A stretch of DNA of 64,000 nucleotides from an uncultured Clostridia bacterium (GTDB lineage: Bacteria; Bacillota; Clostridia; Christensenellales; DTU072): positions 1,822-65,821 of the forward strand of contig CALVJA010000006.1 in assembly GCA_944331875.1 (NCBI GenBank), read 5' to 3'. How positions within the stretch are numbered: the stretch's first letter is position 1; every line of letters starts with the position of its first letter. The position numbers were made by a program, and so were the translations under genes. Under the pieces are notes generated by a model, which was not told the origin of the DNA, did no database searches, and was given only the letters and a program-made list of their open reading frames with translations. Of this stretch, positions 36,407-62,865 are shown piece by piece.

Positions 36407-36806
36407 ACCACCGCTTTACCGCGTCTTTCGGGCTTTTGATACCGATTCAAACAAGTGCTCATATGGTTTTGAGGGGCAGATACGCCCAAATTCTACGCGC
36501 TGACCCACTAGCACGTACCGCTGCGGGTACGAGCGTCGGGGACATCGCTTGCCTTTGAACGTATCTGCCTCCTCAAAACTGCTACGCACTTCGGGAGGAA
36601 TGAAAGTCATTGCTCCCGAAGCATATTCGACTTGTTCTCATCGGTATTGACTTCCTAATATGCTTTTATTTTGGGGCGGCTCGGTCGAGTATGTTCATAC
36701 ACTACCCTCGCCGTTTCCCTCAAAATATCTCCGAAATCCACGGCAAATCGGTGCTATACACCTCATTCGAAAAAAACACTAGTACAAAGGAACTGCTGTT
36801 CACGGC
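36407..36806 (-). repeat. S element copy S-b, interrupted by element X
   Basis: It starts ACCACCGCTTTACCGCGTCTTTCGGGC. The P2 hairpin position is occupied by the 207-bp insert at 36440-36646. Homology resumes at GGGGCGGCTCGGTCGAGTATG. Confidence 0.6.
36440..36646. mobile_element. Element X: 207-bp highly structured insert with imperfect 25-bp terminal inverted repeats flanked by TTGA on both sides
   Basis: The ends are TACCGATtcaAACAAGTgctcATATG and CATATtcgACTTGTTctcATCGGTA. Internal stems are TTTTGAGGGGCAGATACG / CGTATCTGCCTCCTCAAAA and CTTCGGGAG / CTCCCGAAG. This is the only copy in the window. Confidence 0.45.
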
Positions 36807-41355: not shown

Positions 41356-42597
41356 TTAGAATTTCTGGTTCAACAGGGTGATGCCGTCGATCCTGACATC
41401 GAAGTAAGGAGCCGAACGATATGCGCTCTCTTCGAATACGCCGTTTGCGACGACCTGGGTGTCGGCAGCGAAAGCTTCGTCATAGTTGACATCCGCCATA
41501 TAAGCCGTCAATACGCCATTATCAACGGTCGCGTTTACATTCAAGGTATCGGTCTTGGTGACCGTGAAATTCGCGGTGTTGAACACTTCCAACGTACCTG
41601 CGATGAGCTTCTCTCTGGCGGCGTTGATGGCGTCCTGTGTGCCCGCGGCTGCGGCGGCGCCCACATCGGTCAGAACTACAGCGCCGTTCTCGAGCGTTCC
41701 GGTCCAGTCGGCGGCGATGGCTTCACCGTTTTGTACCTGGGTGATCATATAGTTGAAGTACGGCACCCAGTTGATCCTCGAAGATACGATGAAGGTGTCG
41801 GGGCAGGACGCCTCGGTGCTTCCGTTATAGGAAACATTCGGGATATCCTCCTGCTCGCAAGCGGAAGGAGCGCCCATGGAATCGGCGTGCTGGCTTATGA
41901 GATTCGCGCCGCGGCTGATCAGAAGGCTCGCGCCCTCTCTTTCAGCGGTCTCGTCGTACCAGGAGCCGGTGAAGGTCACTTCCATCGTGACATTGGGAAC
42001 GATCGATTTGACGCCGAGATAGAAGGAGGTATATCCGGAGATAACTTCGGCATAGGTGTATGCGCCAACATAGCCGATCTTCGCCTCTTCATCGGTAAGC
42101 GCGTCGTTTTCATCCCCGTACATATCAACGAGTTTCATACCCGCGGCTATACCGGCAAGGTATCTGCCCTCATAAATGGAAGCGAATGCATTGTGGTAAT
42201 TAGCAACGCCCTCGGTGTGCGCCCTGGTACCGGTAGCGTGGCAGAACTGCACGTCGGGGAATTCACGCGCCGCCTGGAGCATATATTGCTCGTGACCGAA
42301 AGAGTCAGCGAAGATTATATCGCAGCCCTCGTCGACGAGGTCGCGCGCGGCGTTATAGCATTCTTCGGATTCGGGAACGTTGGTCCTGAAAAGTACCTGA
42401 GAATCGCTGAGTCCGAGAGCCGAGGTCGCCTCCCTCGCGGCGTCTATGAAGTTCTTGTCATAGGTGCTGCTTTCGTCGTGCAGGAAGATGAAGCCGACTT
42501 TGAACTCATCTTCGGGATCGCACGCGACGAGAGCAACTCCGACAGCCGCCAAAAGCGCCACGATCAGCACAAGTGCCAAAACCTTTTTAAGTTTCAT
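41356..42597 (-). CDS. BMP-family ABC transporter substrate-binding lipoprotein
   Basis: 413 aa with signal peptide + lipobox (LVAC) and a Med/PnrA-like body. Confidence 0.85.
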   Translation of the reverse strand: MKLKKVLALVLIVALLAAVGVALVACDPEDEFKVGFIFLHDESSTYDKNFIDAAREATSALGLSDSQVLFRTNVPESEECYNAARDLVDEGCDIIFADSFGHEQYMLQAAREFPDVQFCHATGTRAHTEGVANYHNAFASIYEGRYLAGIAAGMKLVDMYGDENDALTDEEAKIGYVGAYTYAEVISGYTSFYLGVKSIVPNVTMEVTFTGSWYDETAEREGASLLISRGANLISQHADSMGAPSACEQEDIPNVSYNGSTEASCPDTFIVSSRINWVPYFNYMITQVQNGEAIAADWTGTLENGAVVLTDVGAAAAAGTQDAINAAREKLIAGTLEVFNTANFTVTKTDTLNVNATVDNGVLTAYMADVNYDEAFAADTQVVANGVFEESAYRSAPYFDVRIDGITLLNQKF

Positions 42598-42822
42598 TTG
42601 GATTTACCTCCGTAAGTATTTTTGTTCGGCAAAGCCGTTTTTTCAAAAACGAAAAACGCCATACTCCGTTTGGGCGTATGACGTCGTTATGCGCGGTATC
42701 CCGCTCTCGAGGGCGCGGCACACTGATATGCCGTACGACCCTGAGACAAAGTAAAGCACAATATGAAATTAAATTGCTTCCCTGCTCTCACGGGCGTATC
42801 CTCCTCGAGTCGTATTATCGAT
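42598..42822 (-). promoter_or_regulatory. Long structured 5' leader of the BMP ABC operon (candidate riboswitch/attenuator)
   Basis: About 225 nt lie between the predicted -10 and the RBS. A closing helix CCTCGAG/CTCGAGG (42803-42809 / 42706-42712) encloses two hairpins. It is followed by ATACGCCC aaac GGAGTAT, then GGCGT and two T-runs (42640-42680). The ACGCC segment occurs twice, allowing alternative pairing with GGCGT. Confidence 0.4.
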
Positions 42823-42828
42823 ATACCT

Positions 42829-42857
42829 ATTTTAATGAAAGCGGAAAGTATTGTCAA
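42829..42857 (-). promoter_or_regulatory. Near-consensus sigma-A promoter for the BMP ABC operon
   Basis: The minus strand reads TTGACA (42857-42852), 17-nt spacer, TAAAAT (42834-42829). Confidence 0.6.
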
Positions 42858-42875
42858 ACATTTTGGGGGAGTAAA

Positions 42876-42943
42876 TTTTTTGTTCGCTATATGATAAGAA
42901 AAATATTTACTTTACATTTACGCATGGACTTTATTCTTTGTTC
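42876..42943 (+). repeat. Isolated partial copy of the 115-bp tandem-repeat unit
   Basis: 42882-42943 is identical over 62 bp to 43203-43264. Confidence 0.8.
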
Positions 42944-43025
42944 ACGCTGAAGCTCACGCCCATATTTATATAGATATGTATAAAATTTTCGCGAACAAAA
43001 AATTCGGCGCTCGGAGCGATATTCA

Positions 43026-43152
43026 GGCTCTTTTCCATGAAATCTGTGACCCTCGTTTGGAGACCAAACGAGGGCGGCTCGGTCGAGTATGCTATACACT
43101 TCCCTCACCGTTTCACGGAAAATAGCCCTGAATCTCATCCCCGATCGCCGCC
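43026..43152 (-). repeat. S element fragment S-f
   Basis: GGCTCTTTTCCATGAAATC...CCCTCGTTTGG aga CCAAACGAGGG...GGCTCGGTCGAGTATGCTATACAC...TTTCACGG. The terminal GCGGTGG block is missing. Confidence 0.6.
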
Positions 43153-43362
43153 ATACACCCCTTCCGCGCCTTTTTCCTTGTAAATTCTTCTCGTTTTATT
43201 TTGTTCGCTATATGATAAGAAAAATATTTACTTTACATTTACGCATGGACTTTATTCTTTGTTCGCCATACACCCCTTCCGCGCCATCTGCCTTGTAAAT
43301 TCTTCTCGTTTTATTTTGTTCGCCAAATAATGGAAAATTTATTTACTATACATTTACGCAAC
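43149..43362 (+). repeat. Tandem direct repeat, about 1.9 units of 115 bp
   Basis: The unit is CGCCATACACCCCTTCCGCGCC..CTTGTAAATTCTTCTCGTTTTATTTTGTTCGC + TATATGATAAGAAAAATATTTACTTTACATTTACGCATGGACTTTATTCTTTGTT. The second unit starts at 43264 and its second half is diverged. Confidence 0.8.
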
Positions 43363-43436
43363 AACCTTAAGTTGGTTCAAGCTCTATGCTACGCGCATTC
43401 TTTTTTTACATGGTAAATTAAATTCGGCGAACAAAA

Positions 43437-43696
43437 AATTCGGCGCTCGGAGCGTTGCTCCGCCGAATGGCGGCGCAGTGATATAATTCCGCAAGCGGAA
43501 TAGTGAAATAACGCGCCCGAATGGTAGGAAGTAAAGCCGTAACGGGCGCGTTGTGAAATAAATCGACACTATAAATTTATGAAGTTAAATCAACTTTCCA
43601 AAGTGTCGATTTGTGAAATAAAATCCGCTAGAAGTTTTACAGAATGCTCAAATAAAAAAATACAGCATATCCACTCATGCTATCGTCCGCGGATTT
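43437..43696 (+). repeat. Hairpin string with GTGAAATA linkers, copy B (candidate structured RNA)
   Basis: An extra 5' hairpin is ATTCGGCG...CGCCGAAT. Then follow GTGATATA-ATTCCGC aa GCGGAAT, aGTGAAATA-ACGCGCCC..GGGCGCGT, tGTGAAATA-AATCGACAC..GTGTCGATT, and tGTGAAATA-AAATCCGC..GCGGATTT. Confidence 0.55.
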
Positions 43697-43716
43697 TGTT
43701 CAGGGTCGCTACGCTC

Positions 43717-43892
43717 CGACTTTTTGTGTCGGCTCAGCTAAAATTTTACTATGCTACGGCGCGTCTCACGAATACATACATTGAAAAGCGGTTTGCTAAG
43801 ACCCTCCGGGTATTAGCGGCACCGCCTTTCTTCGTCTGTATCCGAGATCCATCACCGTATCACAGCAAAATTTTAGCTTCACCGACACTGTG
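43717..43892 (+). repeat. P element copy P-B
   Basis: The long-range stem is GTGTCGG..AGCTAAAATTTT (43725-43746) with AAAATTTTAGCT..CCGACAC (43866-43887). The interior carries CCC tcc GGG (43801-43809), TATTA, and GCGG ca CCGC (43815-43824). Confidence 0.6.
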
Positions 43893-43932
43893 CTTCCTAA
43901 TAATCTAATGCTGAAATGCATGAGCTGCCGCA

Positions 43933-43972
43933 ATCATTTAAGTGCCACAAGCCAAAAGCTTCCGACGGCGCC
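43933..43972 (+). repeat. 40-nt block identical to 62474-62513
   Basis: TCATTTAAGTGCCACAAGCCAAAAGCTTCCGACGGCGCCG is present in islands B and D, on opposite sides of the P block. Confidence 0.85.
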
Positions 43973-43987
43973 GTGGGTGGGCGGGGC

Positions 43988-44254
43988 TTCAATCTAAAGA
44001 CCGATTTACTATAACATTGAACAGCTGTTTGCTTATACTAGTGTTTTCCCCTAAAGGCGAATACAGTCCACTATGTATTTTGTCGCCATGAATAGCATAC
44101 TTAGCGCCGATTTGCCGTGGATTTCGGAGCTATTTTTTTCGAAACAAGGACAGCGCGTATAGCATACGCGCCGACGCTGCCCCCGTTTGGTCTCCAAAGC
44201 GGGGGTCGAAGATTTCGGAAAAAAGAGCCCGAAAGACGCGGTAAAGCGGTGGCA
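43988..44254 (+). repeat. S element copy S-g (long form with 5' extension)
   Basis: It is nearly identical to 49165-49432. P1 is TTTTTTTCGAAA / TTTCGGAAAAAA, P3 is CAGCGCGTAT agc ATACGCGCcgaCGCTG, and P2 is CCCCCGTTTGG tct CCAAAGCGGGGG. The element abuts T4. Confidence 0.7.
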
Positions 44255-44388
44255 AATTGATTTCTTTGCCGAATCAGATCCCACCTTATGAAAAAAGCGC
44301 ATTCGGTCGAATGCACTCTTTTTTACTACTTGGCTTTTTAGTTCCTTTCAAAGCATTAAATTATCATCTTTTCGGCAAAGAAATCAAT
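44255..44388 (-). mobile_element. T element copy T4
   Basis: TIRs are at 44255-44273 and 44370-44388. The minus-strand terminator is at 44290-44316. The TGA stop of the PfkB gene (44384-44386) lies inside the TIR. Confidence 0.6.
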
Positions 44389-45244
44389 AACATCCCGGGG
44401 TGCGTATAATATGGGTGCCTGCGCGGAGCGCCTGCTGTAGGCATTGTTCGGGGTCGAGCCCTTTCGCAACACCCGCAGCATAGCCCCCGAGGAACGCGTC
44501 GCCCGCGCCTGTTGCGTCGATACAGGTTGCTTTTTCGGCGGATACGGTTACCGAAACGCCGTTTTTAAGATACATCGCACCTCTTTCCGCCAGCGTTATG
44601 ACGGGATACGGCACTATGTCCGAAAGCCGTTTCAAAGCCTCTTCCGCGCTCTCGGCTAAAGTCAGAAGTTTTGCCTCGCGCTCGTTCGGGAAATAATAAT
44701 CCAAAACTGCAAGGGTATCACGATACTCACGGATATTCATATTCTCGTCGTAGCCGAAATCGCCGACTATGACGCTCCCCTCTTTTTTGAGCTTGCGGTA
44801 GACGTCGAGATATTTTCCGCGTTCCGCTATAACGACCGCGGAGCCGCTGAGAGCGGCATACACCTCCTTGGAGTCGGCGGTACACGGTTCGGAGCGCGTG
44901 ACGAACGTCCGCTCGTTCCCAACCGGCATGACCGCGGTGACGTTTATCCCCGAGCCTTCGCCCGTCATCAAATTTATAAAAGGTATCTCCTTCGCCGCAA
45001 GTTCTTTCAGAATGAAATCCGAAAAAAAGCTCTCCCCCAGATATCCCGCGAATTTTATATCGGCGCCGAAACGCTTCGCGGCATATAGAGAGGACGGCAC
45101 GCCGCCGCCGAGCCTGACCGAAAAATCGCCGGCGAACAGTTCCTCGCCCGCTTCGGGAAGCCTTTTGAGCCCCGAAAACACGAGGTCTACGTTTATCATG
45201 CCTACACCGGCTACCGTGTTTTTAATTATCTTCGTATTCGACAT
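44384..45244 (-). CDS. PfkB-family carbohydrate kinase
   Basis: 286 aa of the ribokinase-like fold with C-terminal DATGAGDAFLGG. Confidence 0.8.
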   Translation of the reverse strand: MSNTKIIKNTVAGVGMINVDLVFSGLKRLPEAGEELFAGDFSVRLGGGVPSSLYAAKRFGADIKFAGYLGESFFSDFILKELAAKEIPFINLMTGEGSGINVTAVMPVGNERTFVTRSEPCTADSKEVYAALSGSAVVIAERGKYLDVYRKLKKEGSVIVGDFGYDENMNIREYRDTLAVLDYYFPNEREAKLLTLAESAEEALKRLSDIVPYPVITLAERGAMYLKNGVSVTVSAEKATCIDATGAGDAFLGGYAAGVAKGLDPEQCLQQALRAGTHIIRTPGCY

Positions 45245-61983: not shown

Positions 61984-61987
61984 GTAA

Positions 61988-62186
61988 GTGAAATAATTCC
62001 TCTCCGAGGAATTGTGAAATAATTTTGCTCCGCAAAATTGTGAAATAAATCGGCATAATATATTTTTATCTTATAATCCACTTTCCGAAATGCCGATTTG
62101 TGAAATAAAATCCGCTAGATGTTTTATCGGTATGCCCGTATAAATAAAAACATCTTCCACACCCAATGTTCCCGTCCGCGGATTTT
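61988..62186 (+). repeat. Hairpin string with GTGAAATA linkers, copy D (candidate structured RNA)
   Basis: The units are GTGAAATA-ATTCCTC tcc GAGGAAT, tGTGAAATA-ATTTTGC tcc GCAAAAT, tGTGAAATA-AATCGGCA..TGCCGATT, and tGTGAAATA-AAATCCGC..GCGGATTT. Confidence 0.55.
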
Positions 62187-62473
62187 GTTGCGGTTTTTAG
62201 ATTTAAGATTTGTTTTTGTATTAAATCGGAGCGAAGCGACCTTTATGCCAAAATTTTTTCTTCACCGACACTATACTTCCTAATGGACTAAAATAATAAA
62301 CCGCATAACAACACCGCGCTCGCGCGGTGACTCGCCGAAAGAAATTCAACCAAGTATTAAAGGAATTTCTTTCGGCGAAAAAGGCGCCGGGAAGCGTAAG
62401 ATTGGGGCACACCCTCGACTTTATGTTTATTTATTAGTGGAGTGTCGCGTTGTAAGCCAATACCTCGCTGAAC

Positions 62474-62513
62474 TCATTTAAGTGCCACAAGCCAAAAGCT
62501 TCCGACGGCGCCG
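62474..62513 (+). repeat. 40-nt block identical to 43933-43972
   Basis: Same 40-mer as in island B. Here it precedes the P-type block instead of following it. Confidence 0.85.
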
Positions 62514-62514
62514 C

Positions 62515-62617
62515 AAGACCCTTCGGGTATTAGCGGCACCGCCTTTCTTCGTCTGTATCCGAGATTCATCACCGTATCACAGCAAAATTTTAGCTTCACC
62601 GACACTATACTTTCTAA
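62515..62617 (+). repeat. P element partial copy P-D (right half only)
   Basis: It is about 95 percent identical by eye to 43797-43900. It contains CCC ttc GGG TATTA GCGG ca CCGC and AAAATTTTAGCTTCACCGACAC. No left arm is present. A second right-arm-like copy lies at 62248-62285. Confidence 0.6.
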
Positions 62618-62689: not shown

Positions 62690-62865
62690 TACATAGTGTT
62701 TTCTTTGTCCTAGGTGTTTAGCGGCTGTCGGGGATGAATTTACGGATGATTTTTTGCGAAACGAGGACAGCGTGTATACCATACTCGCCGACGAAGTTTC
62801 GCAAAAAAGCGCCGTAAAGGCGCCCCGACAGGCGAAAAAAATTCGGCACTCTATCACAACCTTAT
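62690..62865 (+). repeat. Degenerate S element copy S-k
   Basis: P1 is TTTTTTGCGAAAC (62750-62762) / GTTTCGCAAAAAA (62796-62808), a perfect 13 bp. A P3-like GCGTGTAT acc ATACTCGC is present. The P2 hairpin is absent, and GCGCC gtaaa GGCGC replaces the GCGGTAAAGCGGTGG block. Confidence 0.5.

Follow-up and report, generated by a model that had tools for sequence, protein, structure and literature searches.

What kind of element is the palindromic repeat, here called P, that recurs in the window (the whole 64-kb stretch of DNA analysed here), and why is its fold kept while its sequence diverges? The sequence-only reading of this DNA had described P as an outer stem enclosing about 115-120 nt with two adjacent mini-hairpins, and had proposed that it functions at the level of RNA or single-stranded DNA (ssDNA). 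Intergenic hairpin repeats (REP/REPIN, ERIC, BOX, Correia, bcr1) are common; to our knowledge, the means of spread is mostly unknown for hairpin repeats outside the REPIN-RAYT pair. The analysis below shows that P is a previously undescribed, lineage-restricted and strongly structured family among bacterial intergenic hairpin repeats. We give about even credence to the reading that P is a selfish, non-autonomous, non-coding REPIN/MITE-like hairpin repeat that has multiplied across intergenic regions by a mobility that we infer.

Copies of P in the window and in the source genome

The first copy, P-B, the inverted and diverged copy P-C and a right-half copy were all found where the sequence-only reading had placed them, and a short fragment was recorded in addition. 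In the following list, R1 denotes a covariance model of P and A1 an alignment of full-length copies, both described below.

43717-43892: P-B span, with the hairpin proper at 43726-43888
43726..43888, minus strand: full 163-nt hairpin of P-B (170 bits with R1; member of A1)
43889..43905, minus strand: unpaired 17-nt 5' extension of P-B, in sense orientation GATTATTAGGAAGCACA
43721..43725, minus strand: 3' A-run of P-B (TTTTT on the plus strand)
48735..48897, plus strand (sense): full 163-nt hairpin of P-C, a different subfamily (188 bits with R1; in A1)
48718..48734, plus strand: 17-nt 5' extension of P-C, GAATATAAGGAAGTCCC, with AAAA before it
48898..48903, plus strand: 3' A-run of P-C
62515..62605, minus strand: half copy of P comprising the sense 5' arm and apex (model positions about 1-95)
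62245..62271, minus strand: P fragment comprising the first 27 nt of the hairpin, with its own 5' extension at 62272-62288

P-C is inverted relative to P-B and shares about 72% identity with it; contig C7 of the source genome carries a copy identical to P-C. The half copy and the right half of P-B share 95-98% identity (98% over P-B positions 82-173; repeat D3); with R1 the half copy scores only 31 bits. It is fused at its apex to a module termed X, whose ..GGCGCCG end is at 62513, and the same junction between half copy and X is seen again on contigs C3, C12 and C9. The fragment at 62245-62271 is a BLAST match to P-C positions 1-27 and is part of the inverted repeat I6 with 48722-48761 (90% complementary). 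Weak R1 matches (27-31 bits, E about 1e-4) were obtained at 48330-48499 (minus strand), which falls on the S element, at 62717-62839 (plus strand) and at 36461-36582 (minus strand). These matches may be distant P relatives or may share only the shape of a long hairpin.

The source genome is a 1.96-Mb MAG of an uncultured member of the Christensenellales (38 contigs, 95.9% complete). BLAST searches with P-B and P-C matched 80 loci in this genome; 50 full-length copies were oriented by homology, and a search for the terminal motifs returned 55 units of 163-165 nt. Collecting homologues and building a covariance model, as had been advised with the first description of P, led to R1, which was built from these units and gives 57 strong full-length matches, each on a single strand. 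The total thus amounts to 55-57 full and about 25 partial copies. They occupy 42 intergenic regions of 0.4-3.8 kb each, in a genome whose median intergenic gap is about 55 nt, and no copy lies inside a gene according to the ORF-based gene call made in this analysis. Seven copies lie at most 2 kb from a contig end. As a side observation, 207 intergenic gaps of the source genome are longer than 500 nt; together they make up 224 kb, or about 11% of the genome. A self-BLAST of the genome returns repeat matches in the thousands.

P folds into one continuous hairpin

Alignment A1 comprises 48 distinct P copies from the source genome. Its consensus (RNAalifold) is a single hairpin of 61 pairs, in which the whole 163-165 nt of P form one 61-bp hairpin. 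Standard pairs account for 96.9% of the 2,928 pair cells, compared with 38-46% (about 43%) in a control in which the partners were slid by 1-3 columns. Changes on both sides are found at 39 of the 61 pairs (468 cells), and the covariation score of 0.489, against 0.196 in shuffles, was reached by none of 500 shuffles. All four helices of the hairpin are supported. The claim that structure is kept while sequence diverges is therefore borne out.

The architecture proposed for P needed revision in two places. The outer stem GTGKCGG../..CCGMCAC stood, being maintained across the 48 distinct copies, but the approximately 115 nt that it was thought to enclose are themselves part of the one continuous hairpin. 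The apical mini-hairpin (columns 82-84 with 90-92) is likewise kept across the 48 copies, in which it takes the forms CCC..GGG, CTC..GAG and CTC..GCGG with the pairing-preserving variants C-G, U-G and U-A. The second mini-hairpin (GCGG ca CCGC / ACG tcgc CGT) had to be given up: its four pairs form in 50% of cells, as in the shuffled and slid controls, and the bases assigned to it belong to helix 3, which joins the two arms (columns 63-72 with 101-111), is 98.6% paired and shows double changes at seven of nine pairs. P is a single long hairpin rather than a stem that encloses two mini-hairpins.

Three symmetric purine-rich internal loops, two with tandem G.A/A.G and one with AAG/AAA, are conserved in every subfamily:

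Internal loop 1, in the outer stem: G12-A13 opposite G-A near column 159
Internal loop 2: G44-A45 opposite A130-G129
Internal loop 3: AAG in columns 60-62 opposite AAA in columns 112-114

The "middle two" internal loops are held in related genomes too, and the outermost loop is retained in the copies of G013, the second species of the genus in which full-length P was found (see below). The fold bears on two alternative readings. According to the first, P is a classical double-stranded TIR-MITE or a set of decayed IS ends whose DDE transposase was missed in the MAG, and the hairpin is a by-product of the TIRs. The palindromic ends GTGKCGG/CCGMCAC agree with this reading, but the pairing spans the whole element with conserved non-complementary loops and is not confined to the ends; we regard it as very unlikely. 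According to the second, the copies encode trans-acting small RNAs, or serve at the DNA level as a binding or cruciform site that a nucleoid or replication protein recognises. The large number of copies and the conservation of the internal loops and of AAAATTTT tracts would suit such a role, which we nevertheless judge highly improbable in view of the strand asymmetry, unit boundaries and distribution described in the following sections.

The fold is kept on one strand only

The sense strand, as defined by homology, folds better than its complement in every copy, with a margin of 14.6-36 kcal/mol under RNA parameters and of 2.8-16 kcal/mol under DNA parameters. For P-B, the better-folding strand is the minus strand, whose RNA minimum free energy is -95.4 kcal/mol (z = -12.7) compared with -66.6 kcal/mol (z = -8.0) for the plus strand. 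In a neutral DNA palindrome, transitions are expected to yield G:U and A:C equally. On the sense strand of P, however, 313 G:U cells are opposed by 17 A:C cells (A1), and if only those pair positions are counted at which the type is present in at least three copies, 21 positions have G:U and one has A:C. This excess of G:U over A:C on one strand indicates that the fold has mattered in single-stranded form on that strand. The active form of P is a single strand, with the fold kept on one strand only. The covariation and the G:U excess thus support the role at the RNA or ssDNA level that had been proposed from the sequence. The same asymmetry is unexpected for a double-stranded site, which speaks against both a TIR-MITE and a DNA-level binding site. 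The orientation of P shows no replication-strand bias when the local majority gene strand is used as proxy (21 copies agree, 22 disagree).

G:U wobble is a commoner trait of RNA than of DNA hairpins. Together with the conserved tandem G.A loops, which are also typical of RNA, the excess of G:U over A:C lends weight to a third alternative, in which P is a cis-acting RNA structure under host-level selection and read-through or 3'-UTR transcripts fold into the hairpin. The hairpin might then be a target of, or a barrier to, RNase III or exonucleases, or an insulator between convergent genes. We consider this alternative a serious competitor, though a rather unlikely one. For the reading of P as a selfish repeat, the one-strand fold suggests a single-stranded intermediate as the copied form, and REPINs follow the same logic (PMC3116915).

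Unit boundaries and neighbouring genes

A 17-nt unpaired 5' extension with the consensus G-ATTGTTAGGAAGT-MYM is present upstream of most of the 55 units, often with an A-run before it, and in nearly all copies the terminal ..CCGMCAC is followed by an A-run of 2-8. About half of the P units have A-runs on both flanks, which could represent a preferred target or a duplication. If these runs, found beside many units, were target duplications, they would favour a TIR-MITE; the asymmetry of the unit caused by its 17-nt 5' extension points the other way. No unambiguous target duplication was found around P units.

The 5' side of P adjoins other repeat modules, and the 3' A-run faces unique DNA. Eight copies have this A-run 4-19 nt away from a stop codon, the gene in question reading towards P; in at least ten, a good -35/-10 pair (sigma-70-like) of a gene reading away from P follows shortly after the A-run. 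Near-consensus -35 boxes are located 2-4 nt past the A-run at C11:1-164 and C17:22178-22340 and 4-7 nt past it at C6:78179-78342 and C12:6445-6608; the location of the A-run upstream of the -35 box is roughly that of a promoter UP element. This arrangement may mean that P boosts the promoters concerned, or that it has a preference for A-tracts as targets.

Of the 48 copies with a called gene on both sides, 19 are located between convergent, 24 between tandem and five between divergent genes. The gene on the 5' side of P is co-directional in 37 cases compared with 14 in which it is not. In addition, P(-)-X-P(+) composites of about 580 bp recur and take up the entire space between convergent genes (C5:45203-45772 and C8:50570-51142 are examples). 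The enrichment between convergent genes, with only five divergent cases, the co-directional genes on the 5' side and the composites that fill entire convergent gaps are all in line with a cis-acting RNA structure. The orientation of the individual copies is not: those nearest to stop codons are antisense, and therefore worse-folding, in the mRNAs of the genes concerned, the sense strand usually lies behind a terminator-like hairpin and is without a promoter of its own, and there is no U-run after the hairpin. The orientations at gene ends and starts rather indicate that P follows the island edge and not the direction of transcription.

The related genomes and one flank class of the source genome have the terminator-like hairpin immediately before the sense strand, which argues against routine transcription of the sense strand. 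A scan for promoter-like sites upstream of the sense strand of P-B and P-C found none, and behind the hairpin no terminator-like tail is present. We also considered a promoter within the 5' extension (TATAGT) and rejected it, as the motif is unconserved between flank classes and the scans gave no promoter upstream of the sense strand. A function of P as intrinsic terminator was rejected as well: on the sense strand the hairpin runs into A's, and the antisense strand has no T-run behind it. The same boundaries are unfavourable to small RNA genes, since the unit is not bracketed by a conserved promoter or terminator.

Subfamilies and partial copies

Outer, middle and inner stem types occur in about six combinations among the P copies, one outer stem type being combined with two different inner types. 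Such nested mosaics would result from conversion of the central segment, which in a contiguous hairpin alters both arms together. One copy, C5:71152-71314, is chimeric: its arms come from different subfamilies, are joined at the apex and give a poor fold (-60 kcal/mol), so that it looks like a recombination product. Partial copies take recurrent forms, in which the 5' arm and apex are fused to another module, the last 57 nt stand in tandem behind a full copy, or the first 55 nt stand in front of a full copy. A small ORF starting from the hairpin GTG behind AGGAAG was dismissed, because it is open for about 30 codons in one subfamily and meets a stop after seven in the others.

Distribution of P among related genomes

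According to R1, the genus has full-length P in the source genome and in just one of its 21 other species (two of 22), and 20 of the 22 genomes scored lack it. The other carrier, G013 (a MAG of the same genus labelled "uncultured Clostridia bacterium"), has 5-8 copies. Their outer stem has been replaced (GUCGG/CCGAC to CUAAU/AUUAG) with pairing and loops retained, and this replacement of the terminal sequence itself is a further point against a TIR-MITE. A pattern scan for the conserved core revealed two more MAGs, an uncultured Christensenellaceae chromosome (OZ006985.1) and Candidatus Ornithoclostridium faecigallinarum, each with at least 10-12 copies of a 112-nt version without the outer stem. 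A terminator-like hairpin and a T-run precede each of the 112-nt copies inspected in both MAGs, and a convergent gene ends within about 50 nt downstream in at least seven of 20. From metagenome contigs, only this short 112-nt core form was recovered.

The alignment of the cross-species core (A3, 30 distinct sequences) has 34 consensus pairs, 27 of which show double changes; 97.6% of its cells are standard, and G:U cells again outnumber A:C cells (92 compared with four). A model of this core (R2), run over 81 genomes of the GTDB family, was positive in six genomes across four genera. The P family is patchy, with a burst of copy number in the species of the source genome. A patchy distribution is to be expected of a spreading element rather than of a host RNA gene. 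The absence of P from 20 of the 22 scored genomes of the genus weighs against a cis-acting RNA structure, and its patchiness in the genus argues against the core cellular role that small RNA genes or a protein-binding site would imply.

In the source genome and in G013, the same gene (about 90% amino-acid identity) is followed downstream by an island; copy number and orientation of P within this island differ between the two genomes. This common island fits long vertical persistence and possibly a host role, and as an orthologous island it is to be counted for the cis-acting RNA structure. The nearest relative of the source genome has about 75% nucleotide identity to it, and the two islands tested both coincide with a break in gene order. 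For 42865-44383 of the window, the operons for a BMP-type ABC transporter (with its leader) and a PfkB kinase are on separate contigs in this closest relative (G001), and the island between the two operons is without counterpart there. Breaks in gene order coincide with repeat islands.

Search for an enzyme and a parent element

A six-frame search for a Y1 transposase (PF01797) found none in the source genome, although in a 95.9%-complete MAG such an absence proves little, and none was found in the P-bearing genomes G041, G042 and G074. PF01797 does occur in G013, which carries P, and in G001, which is free of P. Y1 occurrence does not track P, and the link to a REPIN-RAYT system therefore fails. 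Within the same 95.9%-complete MAG, there was no match to the TnpB-type domain PF07282, to DDE_Tnp_1 or rve, or to the reverse transcriptase RVT_1 (PF00078). With both PF01797 and PF07282 absent from the source genome, P lacks there what would mark it as an IS200/IS605-derived (PATE) or a TnpB/IscB element. The 3' A-run is the only feature of P that resembles a retro-mobile element. Genes bracketed by P copies were considered as mobilisers and rejected, as they comprise only a Fic-domain protein, a GMP-synthase fragment and metabolic genes. The protein with the Fic motif (HPFSDGNGRMSR) has 359 aa and is encoded at C5:71391-72470, with P copies on both sides.

No parent element was found by structure either. 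In the source genome, no IS-sized pair of P termini (0.2-3 kb) surrounds an ORF, and termini 0.2-3 kb apart that do not stem from neighbouring or partial P copies proved to be chance motifs in ordinary genes (two inspected). The genome also has no multi-copy repeat longer than 1.1 kb. These results, and the lack of a DDE_Tnp_1 or rve match, reduce the probability of a TIR-MITE, for which it has to be taken into account that IS copies are often lost from MAGs and that seven P copies are within 2 kb of contig ends. Phage and plasmid collections contained no match to P. Rfam 15 gave no match to P in the window at gathering thresholds and no relevant match over 42500-49700 at E<=1. That P might turn out to be the end of a known IS, a possibility raised with its first description, received no support: an IS-sized termini pair, a transposase and an Rfam family were not found.

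When the two flanks of every copy were joined and used as query against the source genome, contiguous matches came up only at paralogous sites. On alignment these proved to be segment replacements inside the X module or inside hairpin strings, not clean insertions or cleanly empty sites. A comparison with genomes of the same genus gave no clean empty site either, with synteny broken at the islands tested.

Comparison with known hairpin repeats

REPINs are REP doublets that form hairpins and are associated with RAYT transposases (Bertels & Rainey 2011, PMC3116915). REPINs and P are both long hairpins dispersed outside genes, with conserved ends and a middle varied by compensatory changes, and for both, folding is predicted as ssDNA or mRNA. 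Both also have an asymmetric 5' tail, occur singly or in ordered clusters, and leave remnants in the form of singlets or halves (PMC3116915). The hairpin of P, with its 61 bp, its ends conserved within the source genome and its 39 of 61 double-change pairs, is what would be expected of a REPIN, whereas a cognate RAYT, a gene that as a rule has the repeats on its flanks, was not found in the source genome (95.9%-complete MAG). P further differs from REPINs in being about twice as long, in being paired over its full length and in having three conserved purine-rich loops. RAYT/Y1 is absent from G041, G042 and G074 as it is from the source genome, and P belongs to Clostridia, REPINs to Proteobacteria.

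The bcr1 repeat of the Bacillus cereus group (about 155 bp) is transcribed and resembles P in length (about 155-165 bp), in its occurrence in Firmicutes, in its intergenic location, in a position that is not conserved among relatives and in its compensatory base-pair changes (PMC3184786). It consists of two independent stem-loops with 5-bp direct repeats (PMC3184786), whereas P is one hairpin flanked by A-runs. ERIC, YPAL/RU-2 (about 127-168 bp) and Correia/nemis elements of Proteobacteria are similar to P in length (YPAL about 168 bp) and, like P, are long stable hairpins beside gene ends or starts; they fold at the RNA level and can influence neighbouring genes (PMC3184786). They have no sequence relation to P. 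Correia elements have defined TIRs, target duplications and IHF sites (PMC3184786), whereas the terminal sequence of P is unconserved between species. Host-level RNA roles have been reported for bcr1, ERIC and Correia repeats, and the known ability of MITE-type repeats to fold and act at the RNA level adds to the case for a cis-acting RNA structure (PMC3184786).

BOX elements and BIMEs share with P the organisation of modules in mosaic islands with recurrent module orders, and are likewise without a known transposase; their modules, sizes and host lineage differ from those of P. Gut-1 (RF01706) occurs in the same genome and the same islands as P, several of them side by side, but consists of short hairpins in arrays, whereas P is a 61-bp hairpin without RF01706 match. 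Among such repeats, P is an unusually clean case, with dozens of copies, diverged subfamilies, a near-perfect 61-bp fold, a one-strand signature and conserved loops, in the genome of an uncultured gut Clostridia bacterium without recognisable transposases. It is thus suited to asking whether a fold is selected for its own propagation or for host RNA control, and which protein recognises it. On the practical side, repeats of the P type break assemblies, mark synteny breakpoints, touch stop codons and adjoin promoters upstream.

A model for the propagation of P

Copy number, dispersal, orientation by island edge, decay and chimeras, patchiness and the position behind terminators fit a selfish repeat better than a host RNA gene. 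In the selfish-repeat model, one unit would consist of the 17-nt unpaired 5' extension, the 163-165-nt hairpin and the A-run, and a single strand of this unit would be needed for its own copying or mobilisation. This strand would most likely be an ssDNA intermediate, as in REPIN/IS200-type elements; an RNA form would also be possible. Copies losing the fold would stop spreading, and subfamilies would arise via compensatory change and via gene conversion of contiguous central segments between conserved blocks. The units would pile up with X, S, T and Gut-1-like strings into islands, with the A-run end facing outward. We infer the mobility, the nature of the single strand and the enzyme in this model. 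The "function" of P may be its own propagation rather than a service to the host.

It is also imaginable, albeit unlikely, that P, S, X and the Gut-1-like modules together form a structure-dependent replicator system that spreads without a recognised transposase. The single-stranded hairpin with its three purine-rich loops would then be recognised by a putative enzyme, possibly one of the host. If true, this would explain how repeat-filled islands came to make up about 11% of the source genome without a detectable IS, Y1, TnpB or RT gene.

Other modules of the islands

Islands with P also hold other repeat modules, namely X, S, T and Gut-1-like hairpin strings. The X module (about 240 nt) is found at 62350-62513 of the window and at C5:45367-45609 and C8:50734-50979 of the source genome. 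It contains two hairpins and a long-range GC stem, GGCGCCGTCGGAAGC ... GCTTCCCGGCGCC, after which TTTTT follows. X links two P copies head-to-head, and in some copies a P unit replaces the middle of X.

The Rfam family RF01706 (Gut-1) has 35 matches in the source genome, seven of them over the cut-off; several lie directly beside P and none on P. At 61986-62066 and 43540-43700 of the window, hairpin strings that contain the linker TTGTGAAATAA are full or near matches to Gut-1, and so are those at C24:20191-20281 and C26:7268-7367 of the source genome. Some Gut-1-like stems have GTGTCG../..CGACAC ends, as P does.
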